A stretch of 64,000 bases of DNA from Phycisphaerales bacterium UBA7812 (GCA_002480345.1 DLBY01000030.1:22440-86439); one strand, 5' to 3'; positions 3 through 62,568 are shown, counted from the first letter of the stretch. The notes: generated from the letters alone by a model not told the origin. Numbers and translations are program-made.

Positions 3-1418
3 CTGCGACCCAGCCGGACGCCGACCGTCGCAACGAATCTCTGGGGTGAGCCCGTTCCGTCGGGCGAGGGTGCTCCACTCCTGGGCTGCCAGCGGGTGAG
101 CACGCACCTCTCCAACGCGTTCGATGACACCCAGTGGACCGCGCAGGCTGGCTTCGCGGAGCAGGAGATCATGGCGGCGTCGTACACGATCAGCGCCGCC
201 GATTTCCCGATCCGAATCGACACGATCCAGGGCCTTTTCGTCACCGCCCAGACGACGGTGACGACGACCACGCGCTACACCGTCTTCGTCTGGGAGGGCA
301 CGCCCCAGAGCGGCACGATCGTTGCACAGTTCTCCAGCGATGATATCATTCTGCCCAACCTGGTCATGCCGCCCGGCAACAACGCGACGCTCCTCGAGGT
401 CAGCGTCGACCCGGGTGATCCGGAACAGATCATCGTCCAGAACAACGGGACCGCGACCTATTCGATCGGCTTCCGCATCGACGAGCACAACAACCAGACG
501 CAGAACCCCTGCTTTGTTGCGCCGCCGTCATCCTCCAACGCGTTCCCCGCAACCGATACCAACGGGCTCAACAACCCGACGAACAACTGGCTGTTCGCGG
601 TCGATTGTGGGCTGTTGGGTTGCCGGGCGGGGTGGAGCCGGTTCAGCCAACTCGGGCTCTGCACCCCCTCGGGCGACTGGGCGCTCTCCGCGACCTACAC
701 GAGCCTCGCGTGCACGCCCGGCGTCGGCGCGTGCTGCCTGCCCGATGGCTCGTGCACGATCGACTCGGAGGGCAACTGCACCGCCAACGGCGGGACCTTC
801 CAGGGCGACGGCACGGTCTGCGAGGATGTCGTCTGCGAGATCCCGCCCCAGGCCTGCTGCTTCGAGTCCACGGGGGGGTGCCTGAATCTCGATCCGACGG
901 ACTGCCTCAACGCGGGCGGCGTGCCCGGCGGTGTCGGCACGACCTGCTCCACCACCGTCTGCTTCCCGGAGGGCGCGTGCTGCCTCCCCGACGGCTCCTG
1001 CGCCGACGGGCTGAGCCCCGAGGAGTGCGCCGCGCTCAACGGCACCTTCGAAGGGGACGGCACAACCTGCGCCTCGGTCGTCTGCCCCGAGCCCACGGGC
1101 TCGTGCTGCTTTCAGACCGGGTTCTGCCTCGAGCTCACCGAGGGTGACTGCGTCAACGCGGGCGGGTCATGGGGCGGCCCGGGGACCGATTGCACCGATG
1201 TCGATGGCGACGGCGAACCCGACGCGTGCCAGGGCGGGGGCTGCACCGACGCGGACCTCGCCGAGCCGTTCGGCGTGCTCGATCTCGCGGATATCACCGT
1301 GTTCATCGGCGCCTTCAACGCTCAGGATCCGATCGCGGACCTCGTCCCCCCGGCGGGCGTCTGGGACCTCGCGGACCTCTCCGCCTTCGTCGCGAGTTTC
1401 ATCGACGGCTGCCCATGA
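3..1418 (+). CDS. Secreted Cys-rich repeat protein ending in a 58-aa Cys-x55-Cys-Pro dockerin-like C-terminal module; probably 5'-truncated by the window edge
   Basis: ORF track gives 96..1418. The same frame has no stop back to nt 3 and keeps G/C-rich third positions. The residues after the GTG at 96 show no signal peptide, so the true start is probably upstream of the window. It contains four 41-42 aa six-Cys modules, then CTDADLAEPFGVLDLADI...FVASFIDGCP-stop. Confidence 0.7.
   Translation: MRPSRTPTVATNLWGEPVPSGEGAPLLGCQRVSTHLSNAFDDTQWTAQAGFAEQEIMAASYTISAADFPIRIDTIQGLFVTAQTTVTTTTRYTVFVWEGTPQSGTIVAQFSSDDIILPNLVMPPGNNATLLEVSVDPGDPEQIIVQNNGTATYSIGFRIDEHNNQTQNPCFVAPPSSSNAFPATDTNGLNNPTNNWLFAVDCGLLGCRAGWSRFSQLGLCTPSGDWALSATYTSLACTPGVGACCLPDGSCTIDSEGNCTANGGTFQGDGTVCEDVVCEIPPQACCFESTGGCLNLDPTDCLNAGGVPGGVGTTCSTTVCFPEGACCLPDGSCADGLSPEECAALNGTFEGDGTTCASVVCPEPTGSCCFQTGFCLELTEGDCVNAGGSWGGPGTDCTDVDGDGEPDACQGGGCTDADLAEPFGVLDLADITVFIGAFNAQDPIADLVPPAGVWDLADLSAFVASFIDGCP
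729..1229 (+). repeat. Four tandem 41-42 aa six-cysteine modules (CC-x5/6-C-x7/8-C-x13-C-x4-C) inside the CDS
   Basis: The modules are ACCLPDGSCTIDSEGNCTANGGTFQGDGTVCEDVVC, ACCFESTGGCLNLDPTDCLNAGGVPGGVGTTCSTTVC, ACCLPDGSCADGLSPEECAALNGTFEGDGTTCASVVC and SCCFQTGFCLELTEGDCVNAGGSWGGPGTDC... They start at aa 212, 253, 294 and 336 of the listed ORF. Confidence 0.85.
1242..1415 (+). repeat. C-terminal Cys-x55-Cys-Pro module, copy 1 (58 aa, two dockerin-like half repeats)
   Basis: CTDADLAEPFGVLDLADITVFIGAFNAQDPIADLVPPAGVWDLADLSAFVASFIDGCP-stop. It aligns position for position with the copies at 39100, 40186 and 59724. Confidence 0.85.
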
Positions 1419-1467
1419 GTTCCGAGCCCGGGAGGCGCGCGGAATCCCGCTGACCTATGCTGCGCGC

Positions 1468-2049
1468 ATGACCGATCCCAACGGCATGCTCGGGGAACTG
1501 CGCGCCGCGCAGCAGGCGCTCGATGACTTCGCGTCCGAGGCGATCGCGGCGAAGCTCGAGCGGATCGCGGATGATCTTGCCTCTTCGCTCCGCGCAGGCG
1601 GCAAGATCCTCGCGTGCGGGAACGGGGGCTCATCCGCCGACGCGATGCATTTCTGCGAGGAGCTCACCGGGAGATACCGGGACGACCGCCCGCCCTACGC
1701 CGCGATCTCCTGCACCGACCCCGGCCATATCACCTGCACCGCGAACGACTACGGCTTCGAGCATGTCTTTTCGCGTTGGATCCGCGGGCTCGGCCGACAG
1801 GGCGACGCGCTGATCGCGCTCTCGACGAGCGGCAACAGCCCCAACATCATCCGCGCAGTCGACTCGGCGAACGACCTGGGTTTGACGACCGTCTGCCTGC
1901 TGGGCAAGGGGGGCGGCGTGCTCCGGGGGCTCGGCACGCACGAGATCCTCGCGCCGGGAGAAACCTCGGACCGGATCCAGGAACTGCACATGCTCGCGCT
2001 CCACGCGCTGGTGCTCGGCATCGAGCGGCGACTCGCCAAACCCGCCTGA
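1468..2049 (+). CDS. gmhA: D-sedoheptulose-7-phosphate isomerase (SIS domain phosphoheptose isomerase)
   Basis: Internal ATG at 1468 of ORF 1144..2049. Motifs: GGKILACGNGGSSADAMHFCEEL, TANDYGFEHVFSR, ALSTSGNSPNII, SDRIQELHMLALH. Confidence 0.85.
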   Translation: MTDPNGMLGELRAAQQALDDFASEAIAAKLERIADDLASSLRAGGKILACGNGGSSADAMHFCEELTGRYRDDRPPYAAISCTDPGHITCTANDYGFEHVFSRWIRGLGRQGDALIALSTSGNSPNIIRAVDSANDLGLTTVCLLGKGGGVLRGLGTHEILAPGETSDRIQELHMLALHALVLGIERRLAKPA

Positions 2050-2065
2050 CGAGCACGAGCAGCGG

Positions 2066-2506
2066 TCACCGTGACCCGATTGCGACGGTAATCTCATCGG
2101 GGAGCAGGAGCGTCAACGGCGCGTAACCCGGATGATCCGGTAGGCTTGGAGCCGCGGCGCCGCGGGGCGCGGCCCGCTCGCAAGGCCCGCCCAAGAGCGG
2201 CGGCTCGGTCCGGCAGCGTGACGGCGTACGCCACACCAGGATCTCGCGCGGGGTCCCAAACGACACCTCGGAAGCTCTTGCCCCGATGAGATTCGGGCAC
2301 CGCCCGTCCACCCGGGGATGCGTCGCGGCGAGCGCGGCGCGGCACGCGTTGTGCCGGTTCCGGGCGTGCATCACCCAATCATCGATCGGATAGGTCGTCG
2401 CGAGATGGTCGAAGAGATCGTCGTTCGGAGAGGGCGTGGGCGCAGCCCAGACAACGCTGACCAGCATCAGCGTCGGCAAACCCGCGATCCTTCCCGCTCG
2501 CTGCAT
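2066..2506 (-). CDS. Hypothetical small secreted protein
   Basis: ATG start, signal-peptide-like N-terminus (MQRAGRIAGLPTLMLVSVVWAAP) and G/C-rich third codon positions. No family recognised. Confidence 0.35.
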   Translation of the reverse strand: MQRAGRIAGLPTLMLVSVVWAAPTPSPNDDLFDHLATTYPIDDWVMHARNRHNACRAALAATHPRVDGRCPNLIGARASEVSFGTPREILVWRTPSRCRTEPPLLGGPCERAAPRGAAAPSLPDHPGYAPLTLLLPDEITVAIGSR

Positions 2507-2784
2507 GATCGATCACATCCTCGTCAGCAGATCCGACATTCGATGCCCGACGACCAGCTGGCCCGTCGTGCCCTCCACGCAACGGACGATAGCCGGTTCT
2601 CTTTCGCAAACCCGCCGAGATCCGCGCGGATCATCCGGCCTCGACCTGTAGCATCTCAGATCGACCGCACCCGTCGGCTCCCCCTATCATCGCATGATCC
2701 GAACGCAGCGCGAACCGAGCGCCGCAGCGGGGCCTCCCGGGCCGCGAGTCGGAGCGAGAAGACCTCACGAAAGGAGCACACGCG

Positions 2785-4074
2785 ATGCCCTACTACACGA
2801 AACTCGGCACGATCCCGAAGAAACGGCATGTGCAATTCCGCCGCCCCGACGGCGCGCTGTATTCCGAGGAGGTCTTCGGGACCGAGGGCTTTGTCGGCCC
2901 GACCAGCACGCTCTACCACATCCATCCCCCGACGCAGGTGTCGGGTTGGCAGACGATGTACTCGACCAAGACCGAGTTCGTCGAGACCGATGTCATGCGG
3001 ATGCGCCACATCAAGACCCAGCCCGTCACCGCGGAGGGCGACGCGGTCACCGGACGCAAGGTCATCCTCGGCAACGCGGATGTCGAGATGAGCGTGTGCC
3101 AGCCCGCCGAGCAGATGGGCTACCACTTCAAGAACGGGCAAGGCGACGAGTGCTGGTTCGTCCACTACGGATCGGGCACGCTCTACACGATGTTCGGCAC
3201 GCTGAAGTTCGGAAAAAAGGACTACATCGTCATCCCCAAGGGCACGATCTACAAGGTCGAGTTTGACGAGTTGAGCGACGAGGACCGCCCCGAGGGTGTG
3301 AGCGCCGAGGACATGCCGCTCGCGAAATTCCTGGTCTTCGAGGTGATGAACACGAGCCACATCGGCCCACCCCCGCGGTATGTCTCCAAGACCACCGCCC
3401 AGTTCCTCGAGCACTCGCCCTACTGCGAGCGTGATCTTCGCACACCCGAGCTGCCCATGACCTTCGACGAGGCGGGCGAGTTCGAGGTCCGCATCAAGGC
3501 CCGCGACTGCGTCCACAGCTACACCTACCCCTACCACCCGCTCGATGTCGTAGGCTGGGACGGCTGCTACTACCCCTACTGCTTCAATGTTGACGACTTC
3601 GCGCCCATCACCGGCAAGCTCCACATGCCGCCCCCGATCCACCAGACCTTCGAGGCGCACAACTTCGTCATCTGCTCGTTCTGCCCCCGCATCCTCGACT
3701 TCCACCCCGACGCGATCCCCGTCCCCTACAACCACTCCAACCTCGATTCCGACGAGGTCCTCTATTATGTCGAGGGCAACTACAAAGCCCGACGCGGAAT
3801 CGAGTCCGGGTCGATCAGCCTGCACCCGCAGGGCATCCCCCACGGCCCTCATCCCGGGACCGTCGAGGCAAGCCTCGGCAAGACCGAGACCAACGAACTC
3901 GCGGTGATGTGCGACACCTTCCGCCCGCTCTATCCGACGAAGTTTGCGCTCGAGATCGACGACCCGGAGTACCCGGAGAGCTGGCGGTCCGACCACCACG
4001 CGCCGGGAGAGAAGCGGGCGGCGCAGATGCAGGACGCGGGCGCCAACGACGCTGTCACGAACACCTGGGACTGA
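2785..4074 (+). CDS. hmgA: Homogentisate 1,2-dioxygenase-like cupin protein
   Basis: 429 aa with GAAAGGAG upstream of the ATG. N-terminus MPYYTKLGTIPKKRHVQFR...EEVFGTEGFVGPTSTLYHIHPPT and C-terminal SLHPQGIPHGPHPG resemble the HmgA family from memory. No search was possible. Confidence 0.65.
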   Translation: MPYYTKLGTIPKKRHVQFRRPDGALYSEEVFGTEGFVGPTSTLYHIHPPTQVSGWQTMYSTKTEFVETDVMRMRHIKTQPVTAEGDAVTGRKVILGNADVEMSVCQPAEQMGYHFKNGQGDECWFVHYGSGTLYTMFGTLKFGKKDYIVIPKGTIYKVEFDELSDEDRPEGVSAEDMPLAKFLVFEVMNTSHIGPPPRYVSKTTAQFLEHSPYCERDLRTPELPMTFDEAGEFEVRIKARDCVHSYTYPYHPLDVVGWDGCYYPYCFNVDDFAPITGKLHMPPPIHQTFEAHNFVICSFCPRILDFHPDAIPVPYNHSNLDSDEVLYYVEGNYKARRGIESGSISLHPQGIPHGPHPGTVEASLGKTETNELAVMCDTFRPLYPTKFALEIDDPEYPESWRSDHHAPGEKRAAQMQDAGANDAVTNTWD

Positions 4075-6474: not shown

Positions 6475-7565
6475 CAGGGCCACATCGCGGGGGCGTCGAT
6501 CCCCTCGCGCTCCGGGAGTCCCAGCATCAGGTTCATGGACTGGACCGCCTGGCCCGCCCCGCCCTTGACGAGATTATCGAGCGCCGTGTCGATCGCGAGT
6601 TGTCGCCCTCCCAGCCCATCGGGCTCGGAGATCACCCACGAGAGGTCGACCCACATGCTCCCTTTGATCGCGACGACCTCCGCCGTGCGCGAACCGGCGC
6701 CGTGGACGCGGACGAACGCCGAGTCCGAGTAGAACGAACGGAAGACCTCGTCGATCTGCTCGTCGGTAACCGAGTCCTCAAGCCTCACGAACGAAGTCGA
6801 GAGGATCCCCCTCGCGAGCGGCGCGCTGCGGGGCATGAAGTGCAGGGCGTAGTCCGTCTTCACACCGCCCCGCTCCATCGCCTCGCCCAAGATCCGCCGG
6901 ATCTCCGGGGTGTGCTGGTGATTGAGGTGCTTGTAGCTCTTCAGGTTGTTCACACGGATCGGGTGGTGCGTGCCCGCTTTCGCGTACGCGCCGCTCCCCG
7001 ACGATCCGGTCGACGCGACCACCTGCACCGGGCCCTTCAGCAGGCCCGCCTGCGCCAGGGGGACCAGGGCGAGCATGATCGTCGTCGCGAAACAGCCCGG
7101 CGAACTCACCCGGCGAGCCTGCGCAATCTCATCGCGGTACAGCTCCGGGAGCCCAAACTGCCATCGCCCATCGAGATGCTCGGGGTGCGGGTGGTCCTCG
7201 CCGTAATAGGTCTTGTAGTCCTCCACGCTGCGGAGGCGGAAATCGCCCGAGAGGTCGATCACCTTCGCGTCGAGCGGCTCGATCTCCGGCGCCAGCGTCG
7301 ACGAGACCTTGTGCGGGAGGCCCAGGAACACGACATCAACCCCGTCCGCCGCGTCCGCGAGCGGGATCTCCTCGAAGGTCAGCCCCGTGTCGGTCATGCT
7401 CAGGTGGACCGACTCGAGCGGCTGGCCCACCTGATCGATGCTGCTCACGCGGGCCAGCGCGACTGACGGGTGCGCGAGCAGCATGCGGATCAGCTCCGCG
7501 CCGCCGTACCCGGTCCCCCCCACCACCGCGGCCTTGAACTTTGACGGTTGATCAGGTCGTGTCAC
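6474..7565 (-). CDS. argC: N-acetyl-gamma-glutamyl-phosphate reductase
   Basis: Motifs: AAVVGGTGYGGAELIRML, active-site SSPGCFATT, DNLVKGGAGQAVQSMNLMLG. Confidence 0.9.
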   Translation of the reverse strand: MTRPDQPSKFKAAVVGGTGYGGAELIRMLLAHPSVALARVSSIDQVGQPLESVHLSMTDTGLTFEEIPLADAADGVDVVFLGLPHKVSSTLAPEIEPLDAKVIDLSGDFRLRSVEDYKTYYGEDHPHPEHLDGRWQFGLPELYRDEIAQARRVSSPGCFATTIMLALVPLAQAGLLKGPVQVVASTGSSGSGAYAKAGTHHPIRVNNLKSYKHLNHQHTPEIRRILGEAMERGGVKTDYALHFMPRSAPLARGILSTSFVRLEDSVTDEQIDEVFRSFYSDSAFVRVHGAGSRTAEVVAIKGSMWVDLSWVISEPDGLGGRQLAIDTALDNLVKGGAGQAVQSMNLMLGLPEREGIDAPAMWP

Positions 7566-7671
7566 GAAAATCCTCGATTCCCTGCAGCCTCTTGCTTACG
7601 ACCGCGAGCACGGCTTTCTATCAGGAGCCTAGGCGGGCACGCCGCAACCCCGTCTCCCCTGCATCGGTTGA

Positions 7672-8652
7672 TCAGCCCACGATCCTGCGTCGGCGCAGCG
7701 AATCGAGGATCACACGATCCACCGGCACCCCCGTGTCGAGCAGCATGTGGCGCATCCCGCGGGCCTTGCAGGTCTCCGCGATCCCGTCGATATGCCGTCG
7801 CAACCGAGCGCGGTACTGCTCGATCAACGCCGGAGAGATCGTGACCTCGCTCGCCCGTCCGGTCTCGATATCGGTCAGGCGGATGTCCCCCCGGATCCCG
7901 GTATCGATCTCCAACTCCGGGTCAAGCTCGCCCGGCGCGAGGATCTGCATGCAGCTGACATCGAACCCCTCGATCCCCGCGGCGCTCAGATACCGAAGGC
8001 CGGCGTCCACGCCCTCGGGGAAGAGGAAATCGCTGAGCACGACCAGCACACCCGTCCCCGATTTTGTGCGGACCACCCGCCGCATCGCGTCCGCGAACGG
8101 CTCGGGGCGAGCACCACCCTCGAGCGGCTCCGGATCCTCAAGCAGGAACGCCGTTAGGCGGTCGAGTTGCCCGCGCCCGCGCATCGGGGTGAGCCGGCGT
8201 GTCCGCCCGCGCCCGAACCGCTCGATCACGACGCGGTTCTGGTTGACCAGCCCGATGTAGCCCAGCGCCATCGCGAGGCGACGCGCGTAAGCCGCCTTCG
8301 ACGGCGCATCGATCTCCGCATTGCGGAACGCGCCGCCGTGCATGCTGGGGCTGTCGTCCAGGACGAGGTGGACCACGAGGTCCTCGTCCTCGCGGAAGAG
8401 CTTGACAAAGAAGCGGTCGAGCCTCGCAAAGACATTCCAGTCGATGTGCCTGAGGTCATCCCCCGGCGTGTACTCGCGGTAGTCATCGAACTCGACGGAT
8501 TGCCCCCGGCGCTTGGACCGGCGTTCGCCCGGGAGTTTGCCCGCGAACACCTTCCGGCTGAGCACATCGAGCCGGTCGAGGCGAGCCGCCAGCGCGGGAG
8601 GCAGCAGGTCCTCCATCGTCCGCGGGGTGTCGCTCGTCTGGATGATCCGCAT
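7672..8652 (-). CDS. DUF58 domain-containing protein (MoxR-associated VWA-like family)
   Basis: Internal ATG at 8652 (MRIIQTSD...). Motif: GERRSKRRGQSVEFDDYREYTPGDDLRHIDWNVFARLDRFFVKLFREDEDL. Confidence 0.8.
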   Translation of the reverse strand: MRIIQTSDTPRTMEDLLPPALAARLDRLDVLSRKVFAGKLPGERRSKRRGQSVEFDDYREYTPGDDLRHIDWNVFARLDRFFVKLFREDEDLVVHLVLDDSPSMHGGAFRNAEIDAPSKAAYARRLAMALGYIGLVNQNRVVIERFGRGRTRRLTPMRGRGQLDRLTAFLLEDPEPLEGGARPEPFADAMRRVVRTKSGTGVLVVLSDFLFPEGVDAGLRYLSAAGIEGFDVSCMQILAPGELDPELEIDTGIRGDIRLTDIETGRASEVTISPALIEQYRARLRRHIDGIAETCKARGMRHMLLDTGVPVDRVILDSLRRRRIVG

Positions 8653-17077: not shown

Positions 17078-17698
17078 TTACTTCGCCGCTGCGAAGTTCT
17101 CGGCGACCTTGCTCCAGTTCACGACATTCCAGAACGCGGCGATGTAATCGGGACGCTTGTTCTGGTAGTTGAGGTAATAGGCGTGCTCCCAGACATCGAG
17201 GCCGAGGATGGGGGTATGGCCCTTCATGTACGGCGAGTCCTGGTTGGGTGTGGACCCGACATGCAGTTTGCCGTTTTCATCAAGACCGAGCCACGCCCAG
17301 CCGGAACCGAAGCGGTTGGCGGCGGCGTTGACGAACTCCTCCTTGAAGTTCTCGAACGAGCCGAACGCGGAGTTGATCGCGTCGGCGAGCTCGCCCTCGG
17401 GCGCTCCCCCCCCACCCTTGCCGGCGGGCGCCATGACCTGCCAGAAGAGGCTGTGGTTGGCGTGACCTCCCGCGTTGTTCCGCACCGCGGTCTGCTTGTC
17501 CTCGGGAATTTTGTCGATGTTGCGAAGAACCTCTTCGACGGGCTTGTCGGCCCAGTCGGTGCCCTCCAACGCGGCGTTCGCCTTGGAGACATACCCGGCG
17601 TGGTGCTTGCCGTGGTGGATTTCCATGGTCTTCGCATCGATGTGGGGCTCGAGCGCGTCTGTCGCGTAGGGGAGATCGGGGAGCGAAAAGGGCATCAT
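17078..17698 (-). CDS. sodA: Superoxide dismutase, Mn-type
   Basis: Start [11 protein letters not shown] at 17698. Motifs: [19 protein letters not shown] (Mn-type), [13 protein letters not shown]. Confidence 0.95.
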
Positions 17699-18279
17699 GG
17701 GCTCCTTCTTTGTTTGGGTTTCGGACGGTTTTGCGGTCTTTTCCTGTCGCCCGATCGGGTGACCGAGCCCTGAAAAAACACGCAAATTGTGGACAGATTG
17801 AGGACCGACCGCCCCGCCGGTTGCCGGCGAGGAGTGATCCATGTACGATGTCCGCTCGGCGCATCGTCCGGTGAGCGGTGCTGACCGATAACGAGCGTAG
17901 GTCTCGGTGCCGGGCAGGTCAATCGTCGGACGAATGACGAGTGGCGGATTGGAGTCGACGCGCGGCGGGGCAGTCATGGATGCACAGGAACGGGGTGGCT
18001 GAAGACCCGGACCGTTGTTTGGCGACACGGGATTTCGGAGCGCAAATTTGAATCATTCTTGAGTTGGAGGCGAAACAATCGGGCTGCGAATTCGTATTGG
18101 TATGGACCGGGATGCTGAAATACCTACCGCAGCCTGAACAACTCATACTCCGACCCGGCTTGACAGTCACTCGAGAGTCTCATTTCCCGGCCCCAAGCGG
18201 GCTGAGGAAAGCGGAACGGGCGCAGAAGCCCGAGCGGAAAGCGGATCCCGGACGGACCCGCGAGGAAGGTTGACCCACG

Positions 18280-19338
18280 ATGGTGAACGCACAGAAGCGC
18301 GCCCCCAGCCCGATCGAGCAGACCCAGCGCCGCGAGCGCGTCGGTGTCCGTTCGTCCACAACGGGCGGCGGGGCCGTGCGTCGTCTTTCTCACGAGGATG
18401 AGCGGCTGCTGAAGCAGATCCTCGCGAAGCCTCAGGATTACATCGACAGCGAGGTCTTCTATGAAGACGGCGCGGAGAAGTCGATTTATGACGAGGCCCC
18501 GGCGATCCAGCAGCCGGACACGACCTGGTACCACCCGGTGATGGACGATTACTCGGGCTCTCGCACGCGGAGCGTGAAGAGCAGCCAGCAGGTGATCCTC
18601 ACCGCCGCGGAAGAGCGGGTGCTCTTCCACCAGTTCAACTATGCGCGGCACCGGGTCCGTCTGCTGCAGGACGAGATCTGGTCGAACGCGGACAAGCAGC
18701 CCACGCCGGAGCAGGCCCAGGACATCCTGGGGTGGCACCGCCGGGCGGACCGGATCCGTGAGCAGATCGCGGAGACCAACCTGGCGCTGGTGCTCGCGAT
18801 GGCGAAACGGACGCGGATGAGCGAAGTGGACTTCGCGGACCTCGTGTCCGAGGGGAACATGGCGCTGCTCCGTGCGGTGGATAAGTTCGATGCGGGCCGC
18901 GGCTACAAGTTCTCCACCTATGCGTGCCGCGCGATCCTGAAGGCGTTCAGCCGTCAGGGGATGAAGCTCAGCAAGTATCGCCAGCGGTTCCCCACCGATT
19001 TCGATCCGAAGCTCGAGAAATCGAACTTCCTGGAGACGAAGCGGGCGACCTTCGAGAAGGACGCCGCGGAGGAGGTCCGGACAATTGTCATGGACAATCG
19101 CGCCGACCTCACCGAGGTCGAGCGGACCGTGATCGAGCACCGCTTCGGGCTCGAGAACAGCAACGCGGAAAAGCCCATGACGCTCGAGCAGGTCGGGCAG
19201 ATCATCGGCGTGACCAAAGAACGGGTGCGTCAGATCCAGAACAAGGCGATGGAGAAGATCCGGACCGAACTGGAGAGCAAATTCCTGGGCGAACCCCAGG
19301 AGAAAACACCCGAGGGCGAGGCAGCCGCGACCGCCTGA
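18280..19338 (+). CDS. RNA polymerase sigma-70 family factor (alternative sigma)
   Basis: Region 2: NLALVLAMAKR...DLVSEGNMALLRAVDKFDAGRGYKFSTYA. Region 4 helix-turn-helix: MTLEQVGQIIGVTKERVRQIQNKAMEKIR. Confidence 0.85.
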   Translation: MVNAQKRAPSPIEQTQRRERVGVRSSTTGGGAVRRLSHEDERLLKQILAKPQDYIDSEVFYEDGAEKSIYDEAPAIQQPDTTWYHPVMDDYSGSRTRSVKSSQQVILTAAEERVLFHQFNYARHRVRLLQDEIWSNADKQPTPEQAQDILGWHRRADRIREQIAETNLALVLAMAKRTRMSEVDFADLVSEGNMALLRAVDKFDAGRGYKFSTYACRAILKAFSRQGMKLSKYRQRFPTDFDPKLEKSNFLETKRATFEKDAAEEVRTIVMDNRADLTEVERTVIEHRFGLENSNAEKPMTLEQVGQIIGVTKERVRQIQNKAMEKIRTELESKFLGEPQEKTPEGEAAATA

Positions 19339-19392
19339 GATGGTCGTGCGCGGAGCTTTCTCCCTCTTGGGATTCTCTTCGTTTCTCTGAAA

Positions 19393-19445
19393 CGCCCCAC
19401 CGAGTCACTTGCGTGCCGCGAGTGTTCCGGCGGGGCGTTTTTTTG
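19393..19445 (+). terminator. Intrinsic terminator after the sigma-factor gene
   Basis: CGCCCCACCG ... CGGCGGGGCG stem with one mismatch and an inner CACTTGCG/CGCGAGTG helix, followed by a run of seven T. Confidence 0.6.
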
Positions 19446-19653
19446 TCTCCGGCGATTGGAGCCATTGCGCATTTCAAATGCAGGGCGGGGTGGTTTGCGG
19501 TCTGGAGGTCGCCGGGCTCGCTCCCCCTCGATTTCGCGGCCGAAACGCATCGGCACCGCTATTCTGTGCGTACAGCGATGACCAGCGGGAGGTGCGCAAC
19601 GCCCGCTGCGGCGACACGAGGGATGGCACGCGGGGGAATCCCGCGGGGGAGTT

Positions 19654-20814
19654 GTGACCGTGACGACTATTGACAGTGCCCCAGAGACGCAGAACCCGAC
19701 CGGGCATATCTCGTTCGTGACCGAGAAGAAGGACCCGCACGCGACGCGCTGGGGCGACTTCCTGAAGGCGACGATCGATTACGAGTCTTCCGACCTGATC
19801 ATCAAGACGGACCAGCCGCCCTCGCTGCGGATCAAGGGCTCGCTCAAGAAGCTGAACACCGAGCCCGTCACGATGGAGGATTGGAACACCATCCTCAACG
19901 AGATCCTCGACGAGCAGCAGATGGCGGACCTGAAGAAGTTCGGTTCGGTCGACTTCGCCTACGACTACGATGACAAGACGCGTTTCCGCGTGAACCTCTT
20001 CCAGGCGCGGGGTAAGATCTCCGTCGCCGCGCGTCGGATCACCTCGAACATTCTCCCCTTCGACAAACTCGGGCTTCCCCCGGTGATGAGCGAGATCTGC
20101 ATGCAGCCGCAGGGGATCGTGCTGCTCTGCGGCGTGACGGGTTCGGGCAAGTCGACGACGATCGCGTCGATGCTCGATTATGTCAACGAGCGCAAGAAGG
20201 TGCACATCCTGACGATCGAGGACCCGATCGAGTACATCTTCGAGGATAAGAAGGCGACGATCAACCAGCGTGAGATCGGCATCGACTGCCTGGACTTCAA
20301 GATCGCGCTGCGAGCGCTGGTGCGGGAGAACCCCGACATCGTGCTCGTGGGCGAGATGCGTGACCAGGAGACCTTCGAGGCGGCGCTGCACGCCGCGGAG
20401 ACGGGCCACCTCGTGTTCGGGACGATCCACGCGTCGAGCACGACGCAGACCTTCAGCCGTATCTACGGCCTGTTCGAGCAGGAAGAGGTCGAGCAGGTCC
20501 GCCGGATCTTGGCGTACCAGATGCGGGCGTTCGTCTACCAGAAACTGCTGCCGACGCTGCACGAGCACATCCACCGGATCCCCGCGGTCGAGATCCTGAT
20601 CAACAACGGTGTTGTCCGGAAAATGGTGCTGGAGGGGCGTGAGGGCGAGTTGCGCGAGTACCTCAAGAGCATCGAGGCTCGCCAGAGCGGGATGATCGAC
20701 TTCAACCAGGCGTTGGTCGATCTGGTGGAGGCGGAGATGATCCACCTCCGTGTCGCGATGGAAGCGACGCCGAACGCGGACGAACTGCAGATGCGGCTCA
20801 AGAAGCTCGCGTGA
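19654..20814 (+). CDS. pilT: Type IV pilus twitching-motility ATPase PilT/PilU family
   Basis: Walker A GVTGSGKST, Asp box LTIEDPIEYIF, Walker B DIVLVGEMRD, His box TGHLVFGTIHAS. GTG start. Confidence 0.9.
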   Translation: MTVTTIDSAPETQNPTGHISFVTEKKDPHATRWGDFLKATIDYESSDLIIKTDQPPSLRIKGSLKKLNTEPVTMEDWNTILNEILDEQQMADLKKFGSVDFAYDYDDKTRFRVNLFQARGKISVAARRITSNILPFDKLGLPPVMSEICMQPQGIVLLCGVTGSGKSTTIASMLDYVNERKKVHILTIEDPIEYIFEDKKATINQREIGIDCLDFKIALRALVRENPDIVLVGEMRDQETFEAALHAAETGHLVFGTIHASSTTQTFSRIYGLFEQEEVEQVRRILAYQMRAFVYQKLLPTLHEHIHRIPAVEILINNGVVRKMVLEGREGELREYLKSIEARQSGMIDFNQALVDLVEAEMIHLRVAMEATPNADELQMRLKKLA

Positions 20815-20928
20815 GCGGGCGGGTCCGACCACGGAGCACGCGGCTCGTGCTGATCGGGGTCCCCTTAGCCCTGCGGGATCGCCCGGGAAGGGCTATCCTC
20901 GCGTTCCGCGATCCGGACCTCCGTTCGC

Positions 20929-22662
20929 GTGCCAGAGGAACACACCGTGGCGATTGATCTCATTCAGACACTGCCGGTCTCGACCGGGCTCACGCTGCCT
21001 CCGGGCGGGGCGCCCCTCGTGCTCGCGCAGTCCGCGTTCGTGCTCGTTTCGTGGTGGAAGGTGCTGATCCTGCTTCTGCCGTTCCTTCTCTGGGGGAAGC
21101 TGGTCAGCGATGTGTTCGACAAGCACGCCGACCGCTTCCATCTCGGGCAGGAGAAATGGGGCGCCATCCACCTCTTCGTTGGTCTGCTCGCGGCGGCGGT
21201 CGCGTTCGGCATGCCGATCCCCGCATGGTGGGGTTTCCTGATCGGTTTCCTCGGCGCGGTGCTGATCCTGGGTGCCGATGTGCTGGTGTTCACGGCGATC
21301 GTGAACAAGGACGAACGCGTCCCCGACGAGCACAAGCTCAAGCTGGACATGTCCGCGATGGCGGAGGGCAGCGCCCGCCGGAAGGCGGCAAAGCAGGCCG
21401 CGACCGTTTCGCTCGGCATCCAGGGCCCGGATGGCACGGTGGCGCCGCCCAAGCAGGAGAGCCCGGAATACCAGGTCCGTGCGGAGGCGGAAGGCGTCTA
21501 CATCAAGGCGCGGGAGAACCGCGCGAGCCGGGTGGTCATCTCGGCCAAGCAGGGCGAGGGCTCGGGCGCGGAGTTCGTGATCGACGGCGTGCGCCACCCG
21601 GGTGAGACACTCTCGGCGCCGCAGGCAAAGGCGATCATCGACTTCTGGAAGGCCTGCGCCGGTCTCGATGTCAAGGATGTGCGCCGCCGGCTCGTCGGCG
21701 AGCTCACGATCGTCCGCGACGAGATCAAGAGCAAGGTGCGGCTGGTTTCGATCGGTCAGCAGGGCGGACTCCGATTGACCATGCAGTTCGACCCCGCCCA
21801 ATCCGTTCTGCGAAAGGTCGATGACCTCGGGTTGCTCCCGAACCAGAAGACGGTGCTCGAGGAGATGGTCAACAGCCCCGGCGGTGTTGTCGTCCTCGCG
21901 GGCCTCGCACAGGGCGGGCGCACGACGACGCTGTATTCCGTGACGCAGATGCACGACGCGTACACAAGCAATGTGCAGACCGTCGAGATCGAGCCTCTCG
22001 TTGAACTCGAGGGCATCCGGCAGATCAAGTTCGACCCGACAGGGGCGGACGAGTACTCGAAAGTCGTTCGATCGAATCTCCGGCGCGACCCGGATGTGCT
22101 GTCGGTCGCGGAGATCCCAGATCAGGCGACCGCGCAGGAGATCGCGAACGCGGACCTCGAGCGTTCTCGCGTCTACGCCTCGGTCACCGCGGATACCGCG
22201 ATGAACGCTGTCCGCCTCTGGGTGAAGGCGGTGGGCGACCCGGCTCTCGCGTCCAAGGGACTCAGGGGCGTCGTCGCGGAGCGTCTGATCCGCCACCTGT
22301 GCACGAATTGCCGCGTTCCCTACCAGCCGCCGCCCGAGCTGCTCAAGAAGCTGCAGCTCCCCTCCAAGATCCAGCAGCTGTACAAGAAGGGCGGGCAGGT
22401 CCTTGTCAAGAACAAGCCCGAGGTCTGCCCCGTCTGCAACGGCATCGGCTACGAGGCCCAGCTCGGGATCTTCGAGATCTACCCGATCGGTGCCGAGGAG
22501 CGGGCGTGCATCGCCAAGCAGGACTGGAACGGGCTCAAGACCGAAATGCGCAAGCGTCAGCTGCCCAGCATCCAGCAGGTCGCGCTGATGAAGGCCGCGG
22601 AGGGGCTCACGAGCATCGAAGAAGTCACCCGCCTCTCCGCGAAGCAGGCGGCGAAGAAGTGA
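20929..22662 (+). CDS. Membrane-anchored GspE/PilB-family protein with degenerate ATPase motifs (predicted pseudo-ATPase)
   Basis: The N-terminal ~125 aa carry 3-4 hydrophobic helices. The T2SS-E-like core retains the tetracysteine site CTNC...CPVC, but Walker A is AGLAQGGRTTT, the Asp box is TVEIEPLVE, Walker B is DPDVLSVAEIPD and the His box is ERSRVYASVTAD. Confidence 0.75.
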   Translation: MPEEHTVAIDLIQTLPVSTGLTLPPGGAPLVLAQSAFVLVSWWKVLILLLPFLLWGKLVSDVFDKHADRFHLGQEKWGAIHLFVGLLAAAVAFGMPIPAWWGFLIGFLGAVLILGADVLVFTAIVNKDERVPDEHKLKLDMSAMAEGSARRKAAKQAATVSLGIQGPDGTVAPPKQESPEYQVRAEAEGVYIKARENRASRVVISAKQGEGSGAEFVIDGVRHPGETLSAPQAKAIIDFWKACAGLDVKDVRRRLVGELTIVRDEIKSKVRLVSIGQQGGLRLTMQFDPAQSVLRKVDDLGLLPNQKTVLEEMVNSPGGVVVLAGLAQGGRTTTLYSVTQMHDAYTSNVQTVEIEPLVELEGIRQIKFDPTGADEYSKVVRSNLRRDPDVLSVAEIPDQATAQEIANADLERSRVYASVTADTAMNAVRLWVKAVGDPALASKGLRGVVAERLIRHLCTNCRVPYQPPPELLKKLQLPSKIQQLYKKGGQVLVKNKPEVCPVCNGIGYEAQLGIFEIYPIGAEERACIAKQDWNGLKTEMRKRQLPSIQQVALMKAAEGLTSIEEVTRLSAKQAAKK

Positions 22663-22804
22663 GTTCCGATCGCTCGCGATCCCGCGGGACCTCCGCACAA
22701 CGCGAGCGTCGGCTAGGAAGAGATTCGGTTGGGATGAGCATGCGTGCCCCCATCGAAACCAGCTCCCGCACCGAGCGGGCGCCGAGCACGGCCGGAGAAC
22801 GACG

Positions 22805-24562
22805 ATGATTGTGAAAATCCTCTGCCTGGTGCTGGTTCTGGCGATCACCTGGGTGTGGCTGAACCGCGGGTTCTTCAACGCGTTCATCCACATGCTGTGC
22901 ACGATCGCGGCGGGTGCGATCGCGTTCGCGTTCTGGGAGCCCTTCGCCTATCTGATCATGGGTTTCTCGCCCGACAGCGGGTTCCTGTCGTTCCTCGCCT
23001 ACATCGCGTGGGGCGCGGCGCTGCTCGTCCCGTTCGCGTTGGCGCTCATCGTCTTGCGATTCGCGACCGACGCGTTCCTGAAGAACAAGGTCAGCCCGAT
23101 CGGGGCGGTCGACTATCTGGGCGGCGCGATCTGCGGCGGCATCACCGCGATGATCACCGTCGGCATGCTGTTCATCGGGTACGGCTTCATGCCAGGCTCG
23201 GGCGGCGTGCGGCCCGTGGACTATTCCGCGGAGAGCGCGGGCATCGGATCGCTGCGTCGCGCGGGCGGGCTGTGGATCCCCGCGGAGAAGTTCACCGCGG
23301 CGTTCTACGGGCAGCTGTCCACGACCTCGCTGAGCACGGGCGAGCCGCTCGCGGAGTATTACCCCGATCTGGACATCACCGGATACGCGATCAACATCAG
23401 CGAAGCGGGCGGCAAGGCCCAGCCTTCTGTTCCCTATGACGCGATATCGATCAAGAAGACCTATTTCGTCGGCTCCCCGAACGGTTCACCCACCCGCGAA
23501 CTCCTGGTCGAGAATGCGCAGCCGGACGCGTTCGTGCAGCAGTACCAGGATCTCTCGGGCGAATCGGTGAGCACCGGTCGCCTGTTCGGGGTCGTCGTCG
23601 AGTTCGGCGAGCAGGCGAAGGAGCAGAACGGCCAGGTCATCATGGGCAACGGGCAGGCCCGCCTCCTCATGACCGGGCCCGATGGGAGCGAGGTCGCCCA
23701 TCCCGTGGCGATCATCTCGCAGGCCCGGTCGTCGGACGCCGAGTTGTACGGCCGGTTCATGTACGACAGTGAGGAACTGTTCGTCGCTTCGGTCGGCGGC
23801 GCGAGCCGAGCGACCATGGGCTTCGAGTTCGTCGTTCCGCAGGGATACGAGCCCGAGGCGATCGTCATCAAGAACACCCGGGTGATGCTCGACGAGACCG
23901 AGCAGAACTTCTCGGATCCGACCGCCCGGTTCGCGGCGTTGAACTCCGGCTCGCTCGTCGGAGGGTCCGCGGTGACGGATCTCGACCTCGACGATGTTTC
24001 AACCGTCGAGGTCGATCCGAACGCGGGGTTCCGCTCTCTCCGGCCGATCATCGTCTCGGAGCGGATCGGCTACAGCTTCGAGGTCCGCCAGAAGGGCTCG
24101 CTCGAGCTCAACGAGGAAAACGCGATCCTCCGGGGATCGCAGCAATTCAACCCGGGCGACCTGGACGCCCGCGGCCTCAACCAGAAGGTCACCGTTGACA
24201 GCTTCGCGACGGCGCCCGATGTGCAGATCGTCCGCGTGAATGTCAGCCGGGAGAGCCCCGCGAGCCTGCTGGGTCCCGCCGGTCGGCTCGCGAGCCGGGT
24301 GCTGCCGCCGCAGCTCATCGACACGAACAACCAGGCCTATCCCGCGGTGGGCTTCATCTACGAGGACAACAGCATCGTCGAGATCTCCTACGACCCCGCG
24401 AGTTCCATCCGCGGCCTCCAGCAGGTGCCGACGGTCAGCTCGTCGCGGAGTGATCAGAAGCTCGAGCTCGTGTTCCGGGTCTCCAAGGGCGTCGATATCC
24501 GCTACTTCTCGGTCGGCGGCAAGGTGATCGCGGAGTTCGATCCCCCGGTCGAGGTGCAGTGA
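22805..24562 (+). CDS. CvpA-like N-terminal membrane domain protein with a large uncharacterised C-terminal domain
   Basis: ATG start. Four hydrophobic helices fall in the first ~150 aa (MIVKILCLVLVLAITWVWL..., TIAAGAIAFAFWEPFAYLIMGF, YIAWGAALLVPFALALIVL, GGAICGGITAMITVGMLFIGYGF), followed by ~420 aa with no recognised motif. Confidence 0.6.
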   Translation: MIVKILCLVLVLAITWVWLNRGFFNAFIHMLCTIAAGAIAFAFWEPFAYLIMGFSPDSGFLSFLAYIAWGAALLVPFALALIVLRFATDAFLKNKVSPIGAVDYLGGAICGGITAMITVGMLFIGYGFMPGSGGVRPVDYSAESAGIGSLRRAGGLWIPAEKFTAAFYGQLSTTSLSTGEPLAEYYPDLDITGYAINISEAGGKAQPSVPYDAISIKKTYFVGSPNGSPTRELLVENAQPDAFVQQYQDLSGESVSTGRLFGVVVEFGEQAKEQNGQVIMGNGQARLLMTGPDGSEVAHPVAIISQARSSDAELYGRFMYDSEELFVASVGGASRATMGFEFVVPQGYEPEAIVIKNTRVMLDETEQNFSDPTARFAALNSGSLVGGSAVTDLDLDDVSTVEVDPNAGFRSLRPIIVSERIGYSFEVRQKGSLELNEENAILRGSQQFNPGDLDARGLNQKVTVDSFATAPDVQIVRVNVSRESPASLLGPAGRLASRVLPPQLIDTNNQAYPAVGFIYEDNSIVEISYDPASSIRGLQQVPTVSSSRSDQKLELVFRVSKGVDIRYFSVGGKVIAEFDPPVEVQ

Positions 24563-24618: not shown

Positions 24619-24650
24619 AAAAAACCCCGGGGGTTGCCCCGGGGTTTTTC
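24619..24650. terminator. Bidirectional intrinsic terminator between the pilT-like operon and rplI
   Basis: AAAAACCCCGGGG-GTTG-CCCCGGGGTTTTT. The arms are perfect, with an A-run on one side and a T-run on the other. Confidence 0.85.
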
Positions 24651-25428: not shown

Positions 25429-25938
25429 TTAGGGGGAGGCAGTATCATTCGGAGGCTTCATCGATTTGACCCATTCAGTGGTGAATTTGGAGCCGGCTTC
25501 ATACACAATCAAGGAACCGTCATAGACCACCCAAATCTGATCTGAAAATCCGATATATTCTTCGAAATTGTGTGCAAAGAAATGGCCGCAGTATCCCATG
25601 CCACTTAGCGGGTACCCGGGCAACTGATACTCGTCATTGTTTAAATAGAGTTCGTTGAACGCACTGACGAGCCCTTGCACCCGCTCTCGAAATGCGTGGA
25701 ACGCAGAGGTATTCACGTCCTCATGGAACGACAGATAGTCTCGATTGGATCCCGCCAAACGCCAGCCACCGGCGTAGGCCCTCACAACGGAGTTCGGGTC
25801 TTTCATATTGACGGTCTCGCCGGTTATCCCACCCAGCGGATGACCCCAATGCTGCTTGAAAGCCTGTTGGAGTTCTCCGTCGTACCCCGAAAGGTGTGGC
25901 GTATGAAGCCAGCCATCGACTATGAGATATGACGACAT
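25429..25938 (-). CDS. Hypothetical protein; compositionally foreign low-GC ORF between ssb and rplI
   Basis: The 169-aa ORF spans the whole low-GC patch. Hand counts give 23/60 G+C for nt 25501-25560 and 32/60 for nt 25561-25620. A/T-ending codons (tat, ata, cat, aat, tta, aaa, ttt) are common, unlike the neighbouring genes. No signal peptide and no recognised motif. Confidence 0.7.
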   Translation of the reverse strand: MSSYLIVDGWLHTPHLSGYDGELQQAFKQHWGHPLGGITGETVNMKDPNSVVRAYAGGWRLAGSNRDYLSFHEDVNTSAFHAFRERVQGLVSAFNELYLNNDEYQLPGYPLSGMGYCGHFFAHNFEEYIGFSDQIWVVYDGSLIVYEAGSKFTTEWVKSMKPPNDTASP

Positions 25939-46592: not shown

Positions 46593-46663
46593 GACCCACA
46601 GACTGACGACGCGCCGGCAGTGTGCGAGTCATCCCGGGCCTGCCCCCCGCTAACCTGTTGGGC

Positions 46664-48085
46664 ATGGAGACCGTCTCAATCATTCTGGGGATTGCGCTGC
46701 TCGCATCGGTCGGCGCCGTGATCTGGCTCGCCCTTGGCAAAGCACGGGCCGCCGAAGCCGCCGCGACCGCTCGGGCCGAGGCCGACCAGGCCCGCCGCGA
46801 CGCGGATCTCGCCGAGTCCCGACGCACCGAGGATGTCGGCAAACTGGAGAACATCCAGCAGTCGCTACGGCAGCAACTCGATGAAGCGGACGCGTCCTCC
46901 CGTTCGCTCGAGTTGGAACTGAGCCGGGAACGGGAGCAGCGTGACGCCGACCGACGCCTGCACGCCGAGCGGGAGCAACGCCTCCGCGAAGAACAGACCC
47001 GCTTGCAGAACTGGCTCCGCGAGCGAGAGACCGAGCTCGCCGACAAGTTCGCGAAGCTCTCCAGCGAGGCGCTCGATGCGAACACCAAGCGGTTCATCGA
47101 ACAGGCGAAGGAGTCGTTCGCGCAGCAGATGAAACTCGCGGAGGGCGATCTCGACAAGCGCCGCCAGGCGGTCGACGCGATGGTGAAACCCATCGGCGAG
47201 ACGCTGGAGCGAACACAGGAACGACTCGCGAAGCTCAGCGAGCGTGTCGAGATGACCGCCGCCGCGAGCGAAGCCCTCCGCGACGAGACCGGCAAGCTCA
47301 CCCGCGCCCTCAGCCGCCCCGAGGTCCGGGGCCAGTACGGCGAGATCCAACTCCGCCGCGTCGCGGAGCTCGCGGGGATGACGAGCTACTGCGACTTCAC
47401 CGAGCAGACGAGCAGCCGCGACGGCGAGGGCACCCTCCATCGCCCCGACATGATCGTTAATCTGCCCAACGACCGCCGCATCGTTGTCGACGCGAAGACC
47501 AACACCTACGCCTATGTCGAAGCCGTCAACGCCCACACCGATGACGAGCGTCAGCGACACCTCGACAGATTCGCCAAGCATGTCGCGGACCAGGCCAAGA
47601 AGCTCGGGGACAAGAAATACTGGGACGCGATCGAGGGTACGAGCCCCGAGTTCGTCGTCATGTTCGTCCCGGGCGACCACTTCATCGACGCCGCGCTCCA
47701 GCGACAGCCCGATCTGATCGACACCGCCGCATCGCAGAATGTCATCCTCGCCAGCCCCGCGACACTCATCGGGCTGCTCCGCGCCGTCGCGGTCGGCTGG
47801 CGCGAACACGCGCTGACGGAGCAGGCCCGCGAACTCTTCGTCCTGGGCAAGGAACTCCACGAGCGCGCCGCCGTCGCGTTCTCTCACATCGAGAAGCTCG
47901 GCAGATCGCTGGAGCAAGCGACCAACCGCTACAACGACGCGGTCGGCTCCATCCAGACTCGCCTCGTCCCCACACTCCGACGGTTCGAGGACGCCGGTGC
48001 CAAGAGCGCCAAGGACACACCCGAACTCGCGGAAATCAACACCCTCCCGCGCGCAGGCCTCCCGGTGCCGGATGAACCGCGCTGA
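46664..48085 (+). CDS. rmuC: DNA recombination protein RmuC
   Basis: ATG at 46664, N-terminal TM helix, long coiled coil, then the RmuC nuclease-like core PDMIVNLPNDRRIVVDAKTNTYAY...FVVMFVPGDHF. Confidence 0.88.
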   Translation: METVSIILGIALLASVGAVIWLALGKARAAEAAATARAEADQARRDADLAESRRTEDVGKLENIQQSLRQQLDEADASSRSLELELSREREQRDADRRLHAEREQRLREEQTRLQNWLRERETELADKFAKLSSEALDANTKRFIEQAKESFAQQMKLAEGDLDKRRQAVDAMVKPIGETLERTQERLAKLSERVEMTAAASEALRDETGKLTRALSRPEVRGQYGEIQLRRVAELAGMTSYCDFTEQTSSRDGEGTLHRPDMIVNLPNDRRIVVDAKTNTYAYVEAVNAHTDDERQRHLDRFAKHVADQAKKLGDKKYWDAIEGTSPEFVVMFVPGDHFIDAALQRQPDLIDTAASQNVILASPATLIGLLRAVAVGWREHALTEQARELFVLGKELHERAAVAFSHIEKLGRSLEQATNRYNDAVGSIQTRLVPTLRRFEDAGAKSAKDTPELAEINTLPRAGLPVPDEPR

Positions 48086-62378: not shown

Positions 62379-62523
62379 TTGTGAATCCTCCGTGGGTGTT
62401 CGATCTCGTGTCTCGTGGAACCGGAAAGCCGAGGCCCGGCGGACAGACCGATCGCGCTCGCGGGGAGGCCCCTGCCCCGCGCCGATCTCTCTTCGTGTCT
62501 CCCCCAACCGCGATGGAGGCGGG

Positions 62524-62556: not shown

Positions 62557-62568
62557 CGGTGATCGTGA

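Follow-up and report, generated by a model that had tools for sequence, protein, structure and literature searches.

We analysed a stretch of 64,000 nt (the window; G+C 66.7%) from Phycisphaerales bacterium UBA7812 (GCA_002480345.1 DLBY01000030.1:22440-86439), in which three co-directional genes encode an intact PilT-clade ATPase (gene 1), an integral-membrane protein with the fold of the secretion ATPases GspE and PilB that lacks key catalytic residues (gene 2), and a CvpA-like membrane protein (gene 3). With middling confidence, we regard this locus as the Phycisphaerae form of a three-gene inner-membrane module that occurs at least within Planctomycetota; its function, and the docking role proposed below for gene 2, we infer from comparisons of sequences and predicted structures. 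The components of the module are familiar; its architecture, the anchoring in the membrane, the pseudo-enzyme state of gene 2 and the partnership of the three genes are unfamiliar. To our knowledge, all characterised ATPases of the PilB/GspE/PilT family are soluble, and it is partner proteins that bring them to the membrane. Members of this family are understood to act on a PilC/GspF platform. In a full-text search of the literature, neither the triad nor membrane-integral PilB/GspE proteins were found to have been described and, as an earlier note made from the sequence alone had stated, no described type II secretion system (T2SS), type IV pilus (T4P), Tad or Com system was found that matches the triad.

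The GspE/PilB architecture that the earlier note had recognised in gene 2 is borne out by a match to PF00437 (T2SSE; 136 bits, residues 193-568) and by a PilB/PilF-like predicted fold, since Foldseek aligned the AlphaFold2 (AF2) model to PilB, PilF and EpsE structures (among them 5tsh, 5oiu and 5it5) with target-normalised TM-scores of 0.83-0.86 at 23-27% identity. The model (predicted local distance difference test, pLDDT, 88.9) shows helices at residues 42-69, 74-94 and 101-127, then a linker and then the ATPase fold, and hydropathy gives three strong N-terminal helices at about residues 30-55, 79-97 and 103-125, so that of the 3-4 hydrophobic helices suspected earlier within the first ~125 residues, three are recovered by both approaches. 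Lysine and arginine are unevenly distributed around these transmembrane (TM) helices, with family means of 0.0 in the N-terminus, 3.6 in the loop between helices 1 and 2, 0.0 in the loop between helices 2 and 3, and 8.2 after the third helix; from hydropathy and the positive-inside rule, the N-terminus of gene 2 is predicted to lie outside and its C-terminus inside (N-out, C-in), which puts the ATPase-like domain in the cytoplasm. No N-terminal Pfam domain (N1E, GSPII, MshEN) was detected in gene 2 and, unlike PilB, GspE and PilF, it has the three TM helices in place of such a domain.

The catalytic boxes were compared residue by residue in a HMMER alignment to Thermus PilF, in which the Walker A sequence GPTGSGKS of PilF corresponds to GLAQGGRT in gene 2, the Asp box TIEDPVEYE to TVEIEPLVE, the Walker B region DPDIIMVGEIRD to DPDVLSVAEIPD, the His box TGHLVIATLHT to ERSRVYASVTA, and the N2E motif RLPQDGR to RRRLVGE. 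Gene 2 is without the Walker A Lys, the acidic residues (D/E) of the Asp box, both histidines of the His box and one arginine of the N2E motif RxPQDGR; the Walker B Glu is kept (AEIPD). The claim that every catalytic box is degraded therefore stands for the Walker A, Asp and His boxes and falls for Walker B, whose Glu is retained both in the alignment to PilF and in the family census given below. The tetracysteine site reported earlier is present, with both CxxC pairs (CTNC...CPVC) kept. Gene 2 thus shares with PilB, GspE and PilF the N2E+CTE fold, the tetracysteine site, the Walker B DPD and a Glu at the catalytic position, and differs from them in the lost residues of the other three boxes and in not lying beside PilC/GspF, pilins or a secretin. 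The residues needed for canonical catalysis are missing, and the protein is probably inactive as an ATPase. It also scores far below the equivalog cutoffs of TIGR02533 (GspE; 157.9 against 630.25 bits) and TIGR02538 (PilB; 128.5 against 675.65 bits). Source annotations call gene 2 GspE, PilB or TadA; none of these names is appropriate, because it stays below these cutoffs, differs from GspE and PilB in the Walker A Lys, the Asp box and the His box, and is without their soluble N-terminal domain.

The loss of catalytic residues is a property of the family and is not confined to the source genome. At least 752 relatives of gene 2 are present in a set of 5.8 billion proteins, and the best 120 of them are 49-100% identical to it over 92-100% of its length, the named ones belonging to Phycisphaerae/Planctomycetota. 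In a census of 121 close family members, Lys occupies the Walker A position in none and Arg in 114; His is found at the His-box position in none, a conserved ER[TS]RVY standing there instead; the Walker B DPD is invariant, with the Glu position held by E in 98 members and by D in 21; and the Cys4 site is kept in 120 of the 121 and in distant loci as well. The core family shows little or no variation at G330, R331, T332 and T333, and where old motifs were lost novel conserved ones have appeared (GRTTT, HDAYTSNVQT, ER[TS]RVY), which cluster around the former active site. A cytoplasmic loop of the membrane region is invariant at D64, K65, R69, F70, L72, W77 and H81. An exhaustive profile search of 1.84 billion cluster representatives (50% identity) extends the pattern: in about 125 of the 150 best representatives, all at 250 bits or more, the Walker A Lys is absent (L in 37, R in 26, V in 18, Q in 16, M in 10, I in 7), and the same proteins have no His box, retain the Cys4 site and possess 1-4 TM helices near the N-terminus. 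Among GTDB species representatives, 358 genomes were found to contain a relative of gene 2, the best 80 of which are almost all metagenome-assembled genomes (MAGs) labelled Phycisphaerales, Phycisphaerae or Planctomycetota.

Since the losses are fixed throughout the clade and are accompanied by new conserved motifs, we conclude from these alignments that gene 2 is kept by purifying selection for something other than ATP hydrolysis, and that it is not a decaying copy. A functionless, pseudogene-like paralog might have lost its catalytic residues in the way seen in the alignment to PilF; however, the reading frame is intact and full-length in hundreds of species, the proteins remain 47-85% identical with dozens of invariant positions that include the new motifs and the Cys4 site, the G+C content by codon position is typical for expressed genes, and AF2 predicts the fold with confidence. 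This strong conservation effectively refutes decay, to which we assign next to no probability.

The principal rival of the scaffold reading developed below is that gene 2 acts as a nucleotide- or ligand-binding switch without turnover, which would gate the activity or the localisation of PilT in the manner of non-hydrolysing ATPase paralogs that serve as regulators elsewhere. The near-invariance of G330 to T333, the invariant DPD, the Glu position with its E or D, the clustering of the new motifs at the former active site and the preserved nucleotide-binding core fold would all be expected of such a switch. However, the deeper branches, including those of the distant loci L007-L009, have L, V, Q, M or I instead of R at the Walker A position, and the Asp box, the His box and an arginine finger have gone too; a nucleotide-binding role common to the whole Lys-less clade is therefore doubtful, and we consider the switch rather improbable, if a serious contender.

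Other matches of the representative search had different architectures. P0322 (969 aa) combines an N-terminal FHA domain and TM segments with a fully canonical T2SSE ATPase, and is possibly, to judge from its domains, a membrane-anchored secretion ATPase under phosphothreonine-signalling control. P0253, P0255, P0261 and about 40 others of ~1000 aa are tandem double-T2SSE proteins with MshEN and canonical motifs, which form a separate clade; one of these tandem proteins is named Candidatus Moranbacteria.

The three genes are conserved together. Three of the gene contexts share the housekeeping flanks of the window and for this reason say little, and distant loci were used for synteny instead. 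In four of them (L007, L008, L009 and L092) the order PilT, gene 2-like, gene 3-like recurs among unlike neighbours, with gene 3 only 23-33% identical: a prepilin-like gene lies upstream and MurD downstream of the triad in L007, IMPDH and biotin carboxylase are the neighbours in L008, an extracytoplasmic function (ECF) sigma factor in L009, and PBP2 in L092, which belongs to Sedimentisphaerales. By a tblastn census, genes 2 and 3 lie side by side in 89 of 89 loci, and PilT lies directly upstream of gene 2 in nearly every locus for which upstream DNA is available. The exceptions are two loci in which the gene 2-gene 3 pair lies among peptidase genes without an adjacent PilT (L057, L084), one in which the pair has no PilT nearby (L091), one with a divergent or frameshifted PilT-like sequence upstream (L063), and three with small insertions between the triad genes (L076, L079, L086). 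Genes 2 and 3 are thus a tighter unit with each other than with PilT. Gaps between the genes shrink in relatives to between -4 and 22 bp (e.g., -4, 3, 8 and 11 bp), and identity to the window falls from PilT (72-95%) to gene 2 (47-74%) and gene 3 (29-65%), a gradient that fits the expectation for cytoplasmic, membrane and periplasm-exposed parts. The neighbourhood check proposed in the earlier note has therefore found the triad co-conserved in many unrelated genomic contexts, and structural genes for pili or secretion are not systematically near it, prepilin-like genes being detected by motif scan in 2 of 95 related loci.

Two of these loci call for separate mention. In L007, a distant Planctomycetota MAG, the segment directly 5' of the triad and on the same strand (1164-3321, +) encodes a DUF4465 protein, an N_methyl/DUF1559 prepilin-like protein and an 85-aa open reading frame (ORF), and this is the only locus in which a pilin-like gene may share an operon with the triad. 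A single MAG (CAYXFA01) contains two triad loci of the same synteny on contigs 76 and 70 (L047 and L065), whose gene 2 products are 50-54% identical to that of the window, which suggests a mixed bin rather than two copies.

Gene 1 is, by its motifs, a catalytically intact PilT-clade ATPase. Its assignment to the PilT/PilU family is secured by TIGR01420 (pilT_fam; 389.4 bits against a cutoff of 319.1), it is nearer to PilT (Aquifex PilT, 289 bits) than to PilU (212 bits), and every motif that had been quoted for it is present (Walker A GVTGSGKS, Asp box TIEDPIEY, Walker B GEMRD, His box TGHLVFGTIH), the catalytic boxes being intact in 76-77 of 78 orthologs. Family score and catalytic boxes are thus shared with the retraction ATPase PilT of type IVa pili, from which gene 1 differs in two respects. 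The PilT signature AIRNLIRE is replaced by VVRKMVLE in gene 1 and by VVRK[YHF]ILE in most orthologs with a readable motif (family pattern VVRK[YHFM][IV]LE), and this region was non-canonical in all seven triad-linked PilTs compared, each of them catalytically intact. Furthermore, gene 1 is encoded with a TM-bearing GspE-like protein and a CvpA-like protein, not with pilB, pilC or pilU. In L060, a Phycisphaeraceae MAG, a second intact PilT-like gene lies 3' of gene 3 (7227-8438, +), and its signature, VVRAKIRD, is likewise non-canonical.

Gene 1 might alternatively be the general retraction ATPase of the cell for a T4P or T2SS-like machinery encoded elsewhere, with genes 2 and 3 forming a separate complex and the adjacency reflecting shared regulation or inheritance. 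Consistent with this, three loci have genes 2 and 3 with no PilT beside them (see above), the window itself contains an N_methyl pilin-like gene, and Planctomycetes can possess, at other places, many T2SS-E paralogs (PMC10632474) and full T4P sets, the latter in Planctomycetia (PMC7397252). However, PilT lies directly upstream in nearly every locus with upstream DNA, at 42-95% PilT identity, with many different flanks and in catalytically active triads too; the genes overlap or nearly touch in several lineages, which points to translational coupling; the non-canonical signature region is common to the triad-linked PilTs; and a survey of freshwater Planctomycetes MAGs recorded T4P and tad clusters only in some Planctomycetacia and not in its Phycisphaerae (PMC6461901). 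We judge this alternative to be unlikely.

In gene 3, the CvpA-like four-helix domain noticed earlier is recovered as a match to Colicin_V (PF02674) over residues 5-131, slightly under the cutoff in the window (26.9 against 29.3 bits). All seven third-gene products tested match the family, four of them above the cutoff (34.4, 34.4, 32.2 and 30.9 bits) and the others at 19.7-23.2 bits, and all members of the gene 3 family have four TM segments within residues 1-127. The AF2 model (pLDDT 88.2; predicted TM-score, pTM, 0.80) places helices at residues 2-21, 23-42, 60-91 and 100-127, followed by a mostly beta region, which is probably periplasmic according to the positive-inside rule, the sole basis for this orientation. 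For this C-terminal domain, Foldseek found nothing in PDB at E<=1e-3 (TM<=0.15), a profile search against PDB sequences gave 0 matches, and there was no Pfam match; an enzymatic domain was not detected anywhere in gene 3. CvpA of the E. coli type is a small membrane protein whose gene lies beside purF; gene 3 shares its four-TM N-terminal domain and differs from it in the additional ~450-aa beta-rich domain without structural or sequence match, and in being operonic with two homologs of secretion-type ATPases. Gene 3 was also considered as a divergent PilC/GspF and rejected as such, as eight third-gene sequences gave no T2SSF signal even at E<=1 and the predicted four-helix bundle with beta domains is unlike the helical bundles of PilC.

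CvpA-type proteins have been linked to export and envelope homeostasis, and the module could accordingly be an envelope-maintenance or transport device unrelated to filaments, in which the periplasmic domain, moved by the ATPase, would act on peptidoglycan, on the outer membrane or in macromolecule uptake. Every third gene is CvpA-like and none resembles PilC, pilins are not systematically linked to the triad (2 of 95 loci), MurD and PBP2 lie directly downstream of it in L007 and L092, respectively, and in Phycisphaerales it lies in a housekeeping neighbourhood, all of which would suit such a device. Two peptidoglycan genes as neighbours in about ten independent contexts could, however, be chance, gene 3 has no detectable enzymatic domain, and every characterised PilT-clade ATPase that we know of acts on type IV filament systems; we rate this explanation as quite unlikely.

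Relatives outside the Lys-less clade suggest how the arrangement arose. A few TM-bearing representatives have fully canonical boxes (P0330, P0331, P0304). One of them, P0330, is the central protein of a triad (L090) composed of a PilT-like gene (370 aa; 4-bp overlap), the TM-GspE protein itself (599 aa) and a Colicin_V protein (390 aa), and P0381 is found in the same PilT-like / TM-GspE / CvpA arrangement (L095); P0331 stands alone (L093). P0284, flanked in L094 by a PilT-like gene and by one for a CvpA-only protein of 191 aa, keeps the Walker A Lys and has lost the His box, and is thus an intermediate. All 75 short relatives of P0330 combine a start resembling a signal peptide and TM segments in the N-terminal part with Walker A, Asp, Walker B and His boxes of canonical form, and one member of this family is named Candidatus Brocadiia. 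The P0330 family, from other Planctomycetota, therefore shares with the window triad the gene order and a membrane region homologous to that of gene 2 (the profile match begins at position ~60); it differs in the intact boxes, in the signal-peptide-like N-terminus, and in a shorter CvpA partner (390-400 aa) whose C-terminal domain is not that of gene 3, the third genes diverging in general outside the CvpA domain. In a rough neighbour-joining (NJ) tree without support values, of which we used only the topology and disregarded the Walker A labels, the Lys-less proteins form one clade with P0284 at its base and the TM-bearing intact proteins nearest to it. Because triads with a fully catalytic GspE-like protein exist (L090, L095), the arrangement appears to have begun as a two-ATPase module, and the dead enzyme of Phycisphaerae would be a lineage-specific derivative rather than a purpose-built substitute for a platform. 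The suggestion in the earlier note that gene 2 may dock or regulate PilT in place of a platform protein would need to be modified accordingly.

These observations can be brought together in a model, which we hold with middling confidence. The ancestral machine would have combined a CvpA-like membrane protein with two motors working in opposition, PilT and a PilB-like ATPase anchored in the membrane. In Phycisphaerae, the PilB-like motor would have turned into a static, probably oligomeric, membrane scaffold, which may form a trans-membrane complex with gene 3 and leave PilT as the sole ATP-consuming component. PilT might dock on or beside this scaffold, the invariant loop D64-H81 of gene 2 being a candidate contact, and the TM helices of genes 2 and 3 could relay its conformational cycle to the beta domain in the periplasm, with pulling or retraction-type work as the output on a substrate encoded elsewhere, perhaps an envelope component or a fibre made of N_methyl/DUF1559 pilin-like proteins, which are abundant. 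A bolder and more general reading is that Planctomycetota have an unrecognised class of envelope machine, built from an integral-membrane ring of the PilB/GspE family, PilT and a CvpA-type protein without PilC, alignment proteins or secretin, and that the Phycisphaerae ring has become a pseudo-enzyme stator which passes the force of PilT across the inner membrane to a novel periplasmic beta-domain. We offer this bolder reading tentatively, as a possibility that falls well short of probable.

Several points weigh against the scaffold model. Most core-family members keep GRTTT, the DPD and the Walker B Glu, so that binding of a nucleotide or another ligand may persist and "static scaffold" may be too strong a term. 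The pairs lacking an adjacent PilT indicate that genes 2 and 3 may not always depend on PilT. Gene 3 has short cytoplasmic loops and for this reason would be unable to enter the pore of the hexamer as PilC does. No Rosetta-stone fusion lends support either, as the extended relatives checked carry FHA or MshEN/tandem T2SSE domains and not PilT or CvpA, and the tree has no support values.

Among known systems, a parallel in concept may be the archaellum motor, in which FlaH, a degenerate ATPase of the RecA/KaiC type, partners FlaI, an active secretion-family ATPase. The likeness would lie in the pairing of an active hexameric ATPase of the secretion superfamily with a non-hydrolysing partner of ATPase fold at the membrane, and it is an analogy: FlaH is KaiC/RecA-like and soluble, it works with the FlaJ platform and archaellins, and no homology to gene 2 is implied. 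From T4P, T2SS, Tad and Com gene systems the triad differs in having, among the 40 window proteins scanned, no co-located platform, alignment proteins or secretin, with a lone N_methyl gene 38 kb away. In Planctopirus limnophila, an operon reported as essential (Plim_0410-Plim_0401) comprises T2SS-E, PilT, T2SS-E, T2SS-F and six Planctomycetes-specific genes, its PilT gene, Plim_0409, being scored as 'unclear' for essentiality (PMC10632474); this T2SS-like operon has a different gene set from the triad.

The family described here is a large conserved clade of integral-membrane PilB/GspE members, of which some are active and others catalytically dead. Its steady partners are PilT and a CvpA-domain protein, in place of a platform, and it is unlinked to genes for pili. 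If the three proteins belong to one machine, they would represent a different way to couple a motor of the secretion superfamily to the cell envelope, and a natural case of the conversion of a motor into a pseudo-enzyme scaffold in which active, intermediate and dead forms can be compared. The triad also provides a concrete genetic handle on CvpA, a puzzle since the 1980s, for which the bolder reading, if true, would supply the first mechanistic role of the family. It bears as well on planctomycetal cell-envelope biology, in which T2SS-like genes are essential and poorly understood (PMC10632474).

The three ORFs lie where the earlier note had placed them, and their G+C content by codon position is like that of the real genes of the window (G+C at third codon positions, GC3, 0.87-0.91). 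Both intrinsic terminators that were said to bound the operon could be read directly as hairpins, and terminator prediction also flags 19420-19440 and 24635-24623. Coordinates are collected in Table 1.

Table 1. Features of the triad operon and of its surroundings, in positions of the window.
Feature	Position	Strand	Remarks
SOD ORF	17078-18028	-	316 aa
sigma-70 family gene	18280-19338	+	regions 2 and 4
Intrinsic terminator	19390-19446	+	hairpin AAACGCCCC...GGGGCGTTT then TTTTT; after the upstream sigma-70 gene; 5' operon boundary
Leader and promoter region	19447-19653	+	~200 nt; Shine-Dalgarno-like GGGGGAG before the GTG start of gene 1
Gene 1, intact PilT-clade hexameric ATPase	19654-20814	+	386 aa; TIGR01420; non-canonical signature
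Gene 2, integral-membrane GspE/PilB-fold pseudo-ATPase (putative)	20929-22662	+	577 aa; TM helices, linker, N2E + CTE, Cys4 zinc site
Gene 3, CvpA-like four-TM domain (1-127) and ~450-aa beta-rich C-terminal domain	22805-24562	+	Colicin_V, AF2
Bidirectional intrinsic terminator	24619-24650	.	perfect hairpin AAAAACCCCGGGG-GTTG-CCCCGGGGTTTTT; common to gene 3 (+) and convergent rplI (-); 3' operon boundary
169-aa ORF	25429-25938	-	between rplI and ssb
RmuC	46622-48085	+	
LexA	49718-50353	-	
DprA	51242-52519	-	
999-aa ORF	59721-62720	-	no Pfam match; adjoins the prepilin-type gene
Prepilin-type gene	62569-63660	-	N_methyl/DUF1559

In the operon leader, no sigma-70 consensus promoter was found, and sequence conservation among relatives is low except for GGGAG-N5-GTG. 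A regulatory RNA in the leader was considered and rejected, as a search of the leader and the intergenic regions against Rfam gave no family at threshold and the leader is poorly conserved. In most Phycisphaerales loci the triad directly follows the sigma-70 family gene (70-94% identity), which in the window is separated from gene 1 by the first terminator; in distant lineages the gene is not found at this place.

A Pfam scan of 40 window proteins showed that the operon is flanked by housekeeping genes (ThrRS, superoxide dismutase (SOD), the sigma-70 factor, L9, SSB, S6, Pth, L25, Prs), with an SNF2 helicase, mur genes, DprA, RmuC and LexA farther out. No PilC/GspF, PilMNOPQ or secretin domains occur among these 40 proteins, and no pilus machinery was found within ~12 kb on either side of the operon. 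The statement that the window contains no pilin, PilC/GspF platform, PilMNOPQ or secretin gene consequently needs correction in its first part, as a motif scan of every ORF revealed one prepilin-type gene ~38 kb from the operon (N_methyl 30.2 bits against a cutoff of 21.2, weak similarity to DUF1559, N-terminus ...QGFTLIELLVVIAIIALLIGILLPAL...); the label "orphan", given to the operon at the same time, holds for the neighbourhood only. A defence function was also rejected: PADLOC gave no match for genes 2 and 3 and only weak generic P-loop matches for gene 1, and the locus lies among housekeeping genes.

Some further features of the window may be recorded. DprA, encoded with RmuC and LexA ~25 kb downstream of the operon, is tied to natural transformation, a process for which other bacteria need pili driven by PilT. 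In the SOD ORF, the Sod_Fe domains begin at residue 114, and orthologs have 203-213 aa; its true start probably lies downstream of the listed GTG. The 169-aa ORF has a G+C content of 51.6% and a GC3 of 0.60, against 66-69% and 0.87 for its neighbours, and matched nothing in Pfam or, by tblastn, in 95 related loci; it probably entered the conserved ribosomal-protein cluster recently, as an insertion of foreign DNA.

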